64,000 nt of DNA from Raja brachyura (lineage: Eukaryota), in assembly GCA_963514005.1 (NCBI GenBank), contig OY740815.1:4712001-4776000 (forward strand). Direction: 5' to 3'. Below are positions 2,523-52,030 of this stretch, one piece after another (position 1 is the first letter of the stretch; the number at the start of each line of letters is the position of its first letter). Under the pieces are notes generated by a model. That model worked only from the letters and a program-made list of their open reading frames with translations. It had not been told where the DNA came from and searched no databases. A program made the translations under genes and the position numbers.

Positions 2523-3166
2523 GTACAGTATGTCTGAGCGTTGTCTCTTTTTTTTTGTTTATACTTTTGAAAACTAATTTATATCTTTAAAACAAACTAA
2601 CCACTGCAATTGCTGCAATGGAGAGGCATTTGTGGTTGTGTGTTGTCTTGGGAAGGTCTTGATTTGATGCGCAGAGCTATTACAATGAACGTGTTGGGGA
2701 CTGAACTCCCTCTTCCTCCCTCTCCCATCGGGACAATCGTACAGAAGTGGAAAACCGACACCTCCAGGTTCAGGGACCGTTTCTTCCGGTTTTCATAAAA
2801 CTGAACAATCCTACCACAACTAGAGAGCAGTCCTAAACTATTATCTACCTCTTTGGAGACCCTCAGACTATCTTTGATCGAATGCTATGAGACTTTATCT
2901 TGCACTGAAAGTTTTTCACGTTATTTTCCTCAATCATGTATCTGTACACTGTAGATGGCTCGATTGTAATCATGTGTTATCTCCCCGCAGACTGGTTAGC
3001 ACACAACAAAAACTTTTGCTATACCTCGGTGACAATAAACTAAACTCAACAACTCGACTAAAATAAAACCGAGTGCTTTCGTTCAATCGCTGTTAACCCC
3101 TGATGAATTTAAAAAAAGAGAATGTTGCTTACGCAGAGCAGGTCTTTGATGAGAGAAAAAGAGTAA

Positions 3167-3415
3167 AGGGCCTGTCCCACACTCACGAGGTAATTTGCAA
3201 ATTCTCCAGAGTTTTCCCCCTGATTCAAACTCGCAGAATGTTCGTAACAAGTCCGTAGGAGTTCGTAGATACATCGTAGCGGCTCGTTATGCCAGCCGCG
3301 GTTACTCGTGGCATCAGGTAAGTCGGGCCGTTTTTCCAGTCTGTTAAAAAATTTCCACGAGTGAAAAAAATGGTCGGGATGAAAGAATTTAAGTCGTGAA
3401 AGTGCTTCAGGCCCT
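3167..3415. mobile_element. PIF/Harbinger-type MITE
   Basis: TIRs AGGGCCTGTCCCAC / GTGCTTCAGGCCCT (degenerate); flanks TAA / TTA. Confidence 0.8.
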
Positions 3416-3537
3416 TTAATGTATTTAAAACAGACATTGCCGGAACAATGCAGCAGGGCAGGCCACATTTATGGCAACAAAAAAAAAACAGAGTTCATAT
3501 ATGTGGTTGAAGACACTTTGTTGATCTAAAGCCTTAA

Positions 3538-3854
3538 TGGGCCTGTCCCACTTAGGAGATTTTTTAGGCAACTACAGGCGACTAGTTTGCCGCCACATGT
3601 TCTCCGGTGGACGCCGGGAGTAGTCTCCTCAGTCGTGCAAAAAGTCAATGCATCTTTCTGGTCGCTGCTAAATTTTCAACATGTTTAAAAGTGTTCTGGG
3701 ACAGTGGGTTTGACGCCAATGAGCGTAGCTTGACTTCTCCTGACGTAGGTGTTGTCGCCAGGATGACGTAGGTTGTCGCAGGTTTTTCGATGACCTGCTA
3801 CAACTACGCCAGTCGCCGGCGGTTGCCTAAAAATCGCCAAGTGGGACAGGCCCA
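3538..3854. mobile_element. PIF/Harbinger-type MITE
   Basis: TIRs TGGGCCTGTCCCACTT / AAGTGGGACAGGCCCA; TAA TSD on both sides. Confidence 0.85.
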
Positions 3855-49480: not shown

Positions 49481-50223
49481 TGTTTACTAATTGTGGCCTC
49501 TATGTCGCACTGGGATAATAACCAGATTACTTAGTGAAGATGACCGAGGGATAACTTGACCAGGTCACTTGAAAAATGTCCTCTGCTCTTACATAACTCA
49601 ATGAAGCCTTTTACTTTACACCTGAGACAGGTGTTCCAGACAGAAGTGGAAATTTAAAACTGCAGTTGCTGGACATTAGTAACAAACCAGAAAATGCTAA
49701 GAGACACTCAGCAGGTCAAGCAGCATCTGCGGAGAAAGTAGATGTGATATTTCGGTTTAAAGAGTTGTTCAAGTTGCTTTTCTTTCAGATGCTGGCGGGC
49801 CAGTTGAGCATTTCCTGTTTCTCTCTCTGAGAGGGACATCACGTTAATGCCTGGCCCGTATAGAAGGATCTCCCACCAGAGTGGCACTCCCTCAGTCTGT
49901 ACCGGAGTGTACGCCTGCTGTTTTGTGCAGGATTCGCCCATTCCAGCTGCTCAGTGGCGCAGTTGCTACAGCTGCTGCCTCACAGCACCGGAGACCCGGG
50001 TTCGATACTGACCTCGGGTGCTGCCTGTGTGGAGTTTGCACGCTCTCCCCGTGACTGCGTGGGTCTTGTCGCCCAAGTGGGACAGGCCCTTAAACGTCCT
50101 GTGTACATTGCCCCTAGTGCGACGCGAGTCGACGAGAAAATTGGGGAAGTATGCTCCAAAAGGTCACCCGTTCCTTCTCTCCAGAGATACTTGCCTGTTC
50201 CAGGCTGAGCAAAACTAGACTAA

Positions 50224-50791
50224 AGGGCCTGTCCCACCAGCATGCAACTCTATGCGATTAGCGCGACCTAACGTGGTCGCTTGAGCCGTCCGGCGTCGCG
50301 GGGCCGGTCCCACTTTGATCGCCGGAGCCGTGCGGAGTTCGTCCCGACACCGCGCGGGGCTCCGGAAAACAGACTATGTCCAACAATTCCGCGCGGCAAC
50401 GGCTTGTCGGCTCGCAATCGCCTCGACATTTACACGCCGCCCCGACATCGTGCCTCCGTGAACCTCTCTGTTGGTGCCTCCGTGACCCTCTATGTGTGTG
50501 GCTCCGTGGCCCTCTGTGTGTGTGTGCCTCGGTGCCCCTCTCTGTGTGCCCCTCTCTGTCCTGGCGAACTTACCTTAGACTTCGCTCCAAGTTCGCCTCA
50601 CTTTGCGCCGCGTTGCGCCACTCACCCGACCTCCGCGCAGCCCTCGCTGCCGGTTTGGTTGCGCTTGCCGCATGCAGGCGCATGCTGGTGGGAACGGCCC
50701 TGTACAGGGGATCACCCGACCTCCGCGCGGCCCCCGCTTCTAGTTTGATCGCGCTCATTGCATAGAGTTGCATGCTTGTAGGACAGGCCCT
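50224..50791. mobile_element. PIF/Harbinger-type non-autonomous element with an internal extra TIR
   Basis: Same TIRs as 26674-27158; flanks TAA / TTA; internal GCATGCTGGTGGGAACGGCCCT at 50680-50701. Confidence 0.9.
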
Positions 50792-51451
50792 TTAATTCAC
50801 AACTCAGTCAGAGGTGAGAATCGTACCAACTTAATCTACATTTTAACGGCAACTGATCAACAAACAATGTTAATGGGGTGGGAGGAATCTTGAGTGATGT
50901 AAAACTCTCTGCCCTACCATCTGTAATTTCCTGTGATGTTTACAGAGCCCAAAAAATACAAAGTGAAAAATGTAATTTGGTGTCAAATTCAGGCCAAAGA
51001 GGTGTGTTTCAAAGCAGTGTGTTGAACAGGAAAATATATTAATTTCTGAATGGAGGCATCAATCATCAAACATGCCATTCATAATCTAGAATTTACACAA
51101 TTATGCTTAATTAGATTTACGGTGGACTATTAAATAGAAAAATACACCTTGGCAAGTCTTGGGACCAATGTGTTGGCAGAATGTAAAATCTTTTTAAGTG
51201 AAACAAAACTAAGATCTTCATGAAAATAGATGCTTTGGTGTCGCACCAGTCATTTTTCTTGACGGCGGCAAGCAATGAAGCGTTGATTCCTCCCGTCACT
51301 GATATTTTGGTGACGGAGAAAATATTATTGCCCCCTCGAATTTTCTTTCAGGATGAGCTGATTGCTGTATTTCACACATGGAGGTCAAGAGAAGACATGG
51401 GCTCCTGTCCTCCACAGTCATAGGGAACCCAATGGCCATGCATGCAGTTTA

Positions 51452-52030
51452 GTGGCACAACGGAGTGGTAGAGTTACTGCCCTTCAGCGCCACAGACCCG
51501 GGTTCGATCCTGACTACGGGTGCTGTCTGCACGGAGTTTGCACGTTCTCCCCGTGACCGCGAGGGTTTTCTCCGGGTGCTCCGGTTTTCTCCCGCATTCC
51601 AAAGAGGTACAGGTTTGTGGGTTAATGCCCCTGTCCCACATAGGAAACCTGAACGGAAACCTCTGGAGACTTTGCGCCCCACCCAAGGTTTCCGTGCGGT
51701 TCCCCGGGGGTTTTTGTCAGTCTCCCTAATGGTCGAAAGTGGTTTCCGTTTAAAAAATCGGTTATTTTTTAGGCGAAGCCGGTTGCGATGCTAGTTGAAG
51801 GTGGTTGCCGGAGGACAAAAACCTCCGGGAACCTCACGGAAACCTTGGGTGGGGCGCAAAGTCTCCAGAGGTTTCCGTTCAGGTTTCCTAAGTGGGACAG
51901 GGGAATTACTGTCTTTGGTAAAAATGGCAAATTGTCCCAAGTGTGTAGGATAGTGGTAGTGTATGGGGGCCGTTGGTCAGCGTGGACACGGTGGGCCGAA
52001 GGGCCTGTTTCCGCTCCGATTTTCTTGCTG
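51452..52030 (+). mobile_element. tRNA-derived V-SINE (HE1-like) split by a MITE
   Basis: A/B boxes and V-domain before 51625; tail after 51908. Confidence 0.85.
51626..51905. mobile_element. Highly palindromic PIF/Harbinger-type MITE
   Basis: ~80-bp near-perfect arms starting TGCCCCTGTCCCAC; flanks TAA / TTA. Confidence 0.9.

Follow-up and report, generated by a model that had tools for sequence, protein, structure and literature searches.

Centre-base discordance in the target site duplications of probable PIF/Harbinger MITEs from an intron region of Raja brachyura

Ten complete MITEs (miniature inverted-repeat transposable elements), most likely non-autonomous elements in the PIF/Harbinger superfamily, are located within the window analysed here, a 64-kb stretch of Raja brachyura contig OY740815.1. 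Their 20 flanks all read T-W-A (W: A or T); six copies are bordered by exact TWA target site duplications (TSDs), and in the other four the two flanks differ at the centre base alone. A previous sequence-only reading had listed these same six and four copies, and its tally is reproduced here. The centre-only discordance is real and departs from neutral decay. Ligation of overhang-bearing transposon ends across a central mismatch, whether during insertion elsewhere or when the element flips within its own site, stands at about an even chance of being its cause; in short, the pattern is real and the chemistry is known, while the cause is unproven.

Flanks and empty sites of the MITE copies

Copies were detected by scanning the window for the 14-nt core of the terminal inverted repeat (TIR), allowing up to two mismatches and ignoring the flanks. 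Among the 27 matches obtained, 21 are element ends, every one of which (21/21) has T-W-A outside, and the remaining six comprise three TIR-like motifs internal to elements of the 26674/50224 family and three isolated matches, at 1460, 33401 and 56028, that lack TWA flanks and are read as chance. A 22nd element end, three mismatches away from the TIR core, lies at 3415 and terminates the 3167 copy on the right. The centre base is A or T in 22/22 ends, belonging to the ten complete copies and two orphan right ends. The elements, to which no strand is assigned, and the host repeat used below are as follows:

3167..3415: MITE, 249 bp; TAA/TTA, discordant; 3 mismatches in right TIR
3538..3854: MITE, 317 bp; TAA/TAA; first TIR base T
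7120..7387: MITE, 268 bp; TAA/TAA; family and orientation as 20215
8898..9093: MITE, 196 bp; TAA/TAA; within a host repeat that continues in register
13105..13418: MITE, 314 bp; TTA/TTA; first TIR base T; at the 3' tail of a long interspersed element (LINE) fragment
15191..15488: MITE, 298 bp; TTA/TTA; within a LINE fragment that continues in register
20215..20525: MITE, 311 bp; TTA/TAA, discordant
26674..27158: MITE, 485 bp; TAA/TAA; sibling of 50224 (89-97.5% alike)
50224..50791: MITE, 568 bp; TAA/TTA, discordant
51626..51905: MITE, 280 bp; 92-nt arms, 93% complementary; TAA/TTA, discordant; single site
51461..52012 (approximate limits), + strand: host short interspersed element (SINE), interrupted by the 51626 MITE; source of the empty-site sequence
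50067..50090: orphan right end, ~24 bp; TAA flank; joined to a truncated SINE
54292..54315: orphan right end; TTA flank; terminal base G; no left end within 800 bp

The ten copies represent several families. Both sibling pairs (7120/20215 and 26674/50224) consist of one concordant and one discordant copy, so that a family's end does not come with a set centre base. At the orphan end 50067..50090, the remaining element and some host DNA have been lost. G or C is present on both sides of the TSD in 5/6 concordant and 0/4 discordant copies (p=0.048), a post hoc and unexplained difference that is not used as evidence.

Discordance affects 4/10 pairs at the centre (95% interval: 12-74%) and 0/20 pairs at the outer positions (Fisher p=0.0077; since the window was selected for showing the centre-discordance pattern, this and the neutral-decay probabilities below overstate the case), bearing out the earlier claim that the outer T and A are invariant. 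Random decay had likewise been judged unlikely, and neutral decay would give at least 4/10 discordant centres with P = 3e-6 to 3e-3 over a grid with pair-mismatch rates of 0.07-0.20 and A<->T shares of 0.16-0.33. The TIR arms contain ten mismatches in 140 pair positions (7%), and the change tables of contigs from related organisms give an A<->T share of changes of 0.14-0.19. An underlying discordance rate of 25-50% would give P(>=4/10) = 0.22-0.83.

The host sequence is readable at three copies. At 8898 the host repeat continues in register and shows a TAA target (5/10 host copies shown), and at 15191 the LINE fragment, likewise in register, shows a TTA target matching both flanks; both represent true 3-bp duplications. 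At 51626, the sequence-only reading had taken the empty site to be TAA from the host SINE, and among eight hand-picked SINE copies the centre is A in 8/8 and the full site TAA in 6/8. The right-hand TTA of this copy aligns onto the TAA of the SINE, where three extra bases are found. The 51626 copy is thus one insertion, with the target TAA in its left flank and a non-target centre in its right. A TTAA duplication minus one base would require an equal number of changes at 51626, but is contrary to the 3-bp rule observed elsewhere. All three readable copies (8898, 15191 and 51626) are single sites, each with at least one target flank.

The three other discordant junctions can be written in more than one way. 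The flanks of 3167 and 50224 could also be TAA with an extra T in a T run, and those of 20215 TAA minus one A in an A run, while longer and more sensitive flank searches returned no host sequence crossing the 3167, 20215 or 50224 junctions. Contigs of four related organisms (A, B, C and G among them) were compared with 49950-52100 at 85% likeness. Paralogous repeats dominated the outcome, with about 150,000-170,000 records for each organism, and the matches listed include neither the centre letters nor a joint from which precisely one element is absent. The right junction of 50224 is covered by a contig of organism G, which extends over 50769-51512 with nine other letters and no gaps, and as such this junction has the same length in another species. 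Six of the nine differences are listed, all away from the 50224 centre base. A contig of organism A aligns only from 50811, and the 43 unaligned letters ahead of that point may hold an empty site. Over the unique stretch 50811-51514, organisms A and B carry 56 and 43 other letters, respectively, with a single one-base gap among the matches listed.

Proposed overhang-bearing ends and competing explanations

We suggest that the transposase would cut one strand at the outer edge of the TSD and the other at the TIR, leaving a 5' T-W-A overhang on each end, a geometry carried over here from mPing, a rice Tourist MITE. Should such an end meet a T-W-A gap of opposite type, pairing would be confined to the outer T and A, and an A:A or T:T mismatch would form at the centre. 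If the overhang were ligated rather than trimmed and refilled, replication or independent repair could leave the target base in one flank and its complement in the other, with TAA/TTA or TTA/TAA as the outcome. This may take place when the element integrates elsewhere, at a site of opposite type, which is the proposal of the sequence-only reading (route a), or by end joining of the excised element into its own break in flipped orientation (route b), which would always produce the target base and its complement and would require no transposase integration step. The cut positions in this family, the ligation over the mismatch and the single-site status of the other three discordant copies are presumed in this scheme. 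It is favoured because one cause covers all four discordant copies and each step has a published counterpart.

For mPing, a staggered cut within the TSD that leaves 5' overhangs has been inferred, TAA/TTA donors are reported to excise normally with the breaks joined across a T:T mismatch, and non-matching TAA/TTA ends are described as joined by non-homologous end joining, mostly to one TSD (PMC4561436). When captured at a Cas9 break, mPing often keeps the donor TTA/TAA, and free mPing insertions are described with intact duplications (PMC11254759). Excised piggyBac ends similarly carry a TTAA 5' overhang, and their excision is seamless (PMC7351741). Ends that carry TWA are therefore not a new idea. 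A centre-base signature in genomes, which the literature searched did not yield, would be a variation on known behaviour; nor did that literature describe natural centre-discordant Harbinger duplications, although subscription papers and supplements might contain a report of them. A nematode Harbinger survey is described as dropping elements whose 3-bp flanks differ (10.64898/2026.05.26.728016), and such pipelines can thereby hide discordant copies.

Flanks were also counted in a presumed bacterial relative, a cyanobacterial ISL2-like IS5-family element of Nostocales genomes (loci L014-L196), approximately 1137 bp in size, with DDE_Tnp_4 and HTH_Tnp_4 domains and an A-N-T 3-bp duplication. Its Pfam transposase family is the same as that used to call Harbinger transposases, and its duplication is likewise 3 bp with fixed outer bases. 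It differs in its ANT target and in being autonomous and bacterial, and the kinship of the window MITEs is assumed from the superfamily, the MITEs being non-coding. Both ends were found at 31/49 of the first loci, and the set was enlarged to 48 distinct complete copies. Their flanks are identical in 35 copies (classed by flank identity alone), discordant at the centre only in ten and altered at the outer bases in three. The centre-only rate (10/45) is not distinguishable from that of the window (4/10; p=0.26).

For every one of the ten centre-only copies, empty sites were sought among 121-151 relatives. One, L015 (1417-2559), is a true single site, with flanks ACT/AGT, the target AGT, and an empty site that is contiguous in 6/7 relatives; its left flank ACT is the reverse complement of the target. 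This is what flipped re-joining or hairpin copying predicts, in one case, and what donor carry-over would seldom predict since C and G centres are rare. L042 and L028 are located at adjacent deletions, with 1.43 kb missing between native ATT and ACT sites in the former and ~0.8 kb in the latter, while L019 is associated with a 212-bp adjacent inversion, and in L020, L044 and L196 the left host sequence continues elsewhere. The searches for L021, L041 and L059 were uninformative, and single and rearranged sites in this set could not be told apart by open-frame continuity over the junctions. In this relative, centre-only discordance is thus common and mostly due to flank exchange, and retained overhangs are rare. 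Rearrangement next to the element (a deletion, an inversion or exchanged flanks) is found at no fewer than 6/48 copies, even though one or two copies per genome is the usual number. A further IS5-family element (L013:964-1971; DUF4096 and DDE_Tnp_1), on a Rhodococcus plasmid, has TTA on both sides.

Several results weigh against overhang-bearing ends. In yeast, 45/46 insertions from a TCA/TCA mPing donor are reported at TTA or TAA (PMC4561436), corresponding to a carry-over rate from the TCA donor with an upper 95% bound of ~6-12%. The lone TCA is no sign of carry-over, as TCA is also present in 1/22 rows of wild-type mPing targets (two rows identical; reference sites only; PMC2836001 supplement 3). 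With this natural TCA background, integration at a new site with a kept overhang is rare in yeast. Furthermore, 6/7 testable discordant copies of the ISL2-like relative have rearranged flanks, and its only single-site discordant copy, L015, stands beside 35 concordant and three uninformative ones and could be a point mutation. This weakens the generality of the overhang mechanism and supplies its main rival. In the window itself, no transposase of the MITE family was seen, so that its cut sites are presumed, an empty site is available for 51626 alone among the discordant copies (not for 3167, 20215 or 50224), and the ten copies belong to several families of a single window picked for the pattern. 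Route (b) escapes the yeast result because it flips the element in place by end joining, and L015, whose right flank is the target AGT and whose left flank is the complement ACT, counts for this route as it matches its prediction. The TWA overhang proposed by the sequence-only reading accordingly stands in part: such ends are published for mPing, while survival of the overhang into natural insertions is supported at 51626 at most and opposed by the yeast and ISL2-like counts. That Harbinger elements of this vertebrate lineage routinely integrate, or re-join in place, with the 3-nt donor overhang intact, leaving a quarter to half of insertions with a non-duplicated centre, is a possible though rather unlikely extension of the proposal.

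The weights given to the overhang scheme and its rivals are judgements rather than computed values. Flank exchange, in which the two ends sit at genuine TWAs of different targets and the 51626 flank is an ordinary A-to-T change, is possible though rather unlikely, and could account for up to three of the four discordant copies. Its sources would be recombination among nearby copies and deletions or inversions that the transposase makes alongside the element, and half of its products would look centre-only discordant. It is the main cause in the ISL2-like relative, TWA sites are dense in the window (29.7 per kb, approximately every 34 bp), and two orphan ends are present, of which one abuts a truncated SINE. 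However, 3/3 readable window copies are single-site, and three discordant copies among the seven unread ones would need most of these to be swapped. At a discordance rate of 5-10%, P(>=4/10) is 0.001-0.013, a separate rare event would be required for 51626, and rearrangement rates of bacterial insertion sequences may not hold for vertebrate MITEs. Were flank exchange nonetheless the cause, centre-only discordance in T-N-A or A-N-T targets would usually denote an adjacent deletion or inversion, as in the bacterial set. Ordinary decay or assembly error, comprising point changes and one-base slips in T or A runs (3167, 50224 and 20215), is improbable. All three of these junctions are writable as slips and the copies are old enough for 7% arm mismatch, but neutral substitution is opposed by the probabilities given above, a single one-base gap accompanies the 56 and 43 other letters among the matches listed for organisms A and B, and the gap-free organism G contig rules out an assembly slip at the right-hand junction of 50224. 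The 51626 copy, with its TAA target, is not explained by any slip.

Quasi-palindrome correction following insertion, in which the TIRs of single-stranded DNA fold back and template switching fixes the one mismatch at the centre of the lengthened stem, converting TAA/TAA into TAA/TTA or TTA/TAA, is quite improbable. Each discordant pair perfectly extends the inverted repeat, a folding energy of -128 kcal/mol (z=-19) is obtained for the 51626 copy, and the L015 complement is predicted by this route also. The discordant copies, however, show no closer likeness between their 14-nt arms (3, 0, 1 and 1 mismatches) than the concordant copies (0, 1, 0, 2, 1 and 1), and the next base outward pairs in 0/4 discordant and 4/6 concordant copies. 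Furthermore, a mismatch at TIR position 2, beside the TSD, persists in 51626, and left-right differences shared by siblings remain at TIR positions 12 and 15 (26674 and 50224) and 18 (7120 and 20215). The hairpin-templated conversion offered as an alternative by the sequence-only reading is disfavoured on these four counts. Finally, some sites may hold no true duplication, having arisen through a Spy-like blunt insertion between TWA half-sites or an offset TTAA cut whose 4-bp duplication was afterwards shortened. Spy provides a precedent for insertion without a TSD and three discordant sites are writable in a TTAA context, but with exactly three duplicated bases at 8898 and 15191, and three extra bases at 51626, this is highly improbable. 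The flank-exchange rival, the one-base-slip readings, the several families and the orphan ends at 50090 and 54315 go beyond what the sequence-only reading had noted.

Additional features of the window

The window comprises vertebrate DNA with many SINE and LINE fragments, and its repeats resemble those of cartilaginous fish. Within the 50224 MITE, an inner copy (76%) of the last 80 bp is present (50622-50791), with a degenerate TIR end at 50701, and the 83 bp of this inner repeat are missing from its sibling 26674. Organism G shows far greater depth over the 50224 interior than either B or C, which hints weakly at an expansion specific to a lineage. No other MITE family with a clear duplication, sought as a decay control, was found in the window. 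Two-ended pattern scans elsewhere returned four metagenome-contig matches and one viral-contig match, none with TWA flanks or similarity of the kind expected, which are taken as chance.

A long exon-like frame of 894 codons, rich in E, S, Q and M, is located at 31633-34317 (+) and presumably represents the terminal exon of a gene for a KAT6A-like acetyltransferase, an assignment unconfirmed by Pfam, PDB and Atlas. An unbroken 969-codon frame with endonuclease and reverse transcriptase domains (43337-46246, +) represents a young non-LTR retrotransposon copy. Two LINE-like arms of ~440 bp, 99% complementary and separated by 1.1 kb, are found at 40150-42149 without a clear target duplication, and reflect either inverted duplication in the very recent past or the assembly itself. 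At 30068-30327, a LINE tail has given rise to nested inverted repeats (95 and 67 nt, 93-94% complementary), read as a local fold-back rearrangement. A run of 322 N (62813-63134) adjoins a TA/TG microsatellite.

Significance and comparison with known systems

If the donor overhang is routinely retained in this lineage, the 'target site duplication' of PHIS elements would be only partly target-derived, with the centre base recording the donor type and the inherited strand, and filters that require TSD identity would discard up to half of the genuine copies. The centre-base signature would furthermore allow the cut position of the enzyme and the host's resolution of the junction to be read out from genomes, for an integration step on which the literature searched holds little direct biochemistry for PIF/Harbinger (one general review). 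It would link Harbinger with piggyBac-type seamless transposition in the vertebrate germline, and would have consequences for annotation software that insists on identical TSDs as well as for targeted insertion with Pong.

The assignment to PIF/Harbinger draws on the TWA duplication (22/22 ends TWA; 6/10 exact; 3 bp according to the host repeats at 8898, 15191 and 51626) and on the short, non-coding structure of the elements (196-568 bp), which share the 14-nt core and have TIRs mostly below 60 bp (arms of 17-53 nt where measured; 92 nt in 51626). The first TIR base, reported as usually A or G in PIF/Harbinger (PMC4482050 section 5), is A in 7/10 and T in 3/10 copies, and, with regard to a target preference reaching outside the TSD, G or C is found at 15/20 adjoining positions (few sites). 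No autonomous partner, as a DDE transposase or a Myb/SANT protein, was recognised by eye among the 26 open reading frames of at least 150 amino acids in the window.

The mPing/Ping/Pong system resembles the window MITEs in its short non-coding element, short TIRs and 3-bp TWA target duplication, and differs in TIR sequence and host. Among the PHIS groups and targets set out in PMC4482050, Spy is described as inserting without a TSD (PMC4482050, PMC11304231) and NuwaII as targeting C|TNA|G (PMC4482050). The duplications at 8898, 15191 and 51626 are at odds with Spy. NuwaII is closer, with a 3-bp T-N-A duplication, animal hosts and some C|..|G preference (both bases are found in 3/10 window copies), but the window centres are only A or T (22/22), the TIRs begin with A, T or C followed by a G run rather than with GG, and the host repeats set the boundary before A/T-G, which argues against membership. 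Zator elements have TWA duplications, GG termini and a TP36-type transposase, whereas the window termini do not begin with GG. Kolobok elements produce a 4-bp TTAA duplication, and neither these nor piggyBac accommodate the window MITEs, the fourth base of which is element-derived and complementary at both ends in 10/10 copies, with host repeats giving 3 bp. Mismatches at non-canonical piggyBac sites were reportedly described by Li et al. 2013. The piggyBac system is similar in that excised ends bear the donor target site as a 5' overhang, and differs in its unrelated ends, its hairpin intermediates and its 4-bp TTAA, a true palindrome with which matched donors never mismatch, whereas with TWA half of the donor-target pairs would do so.

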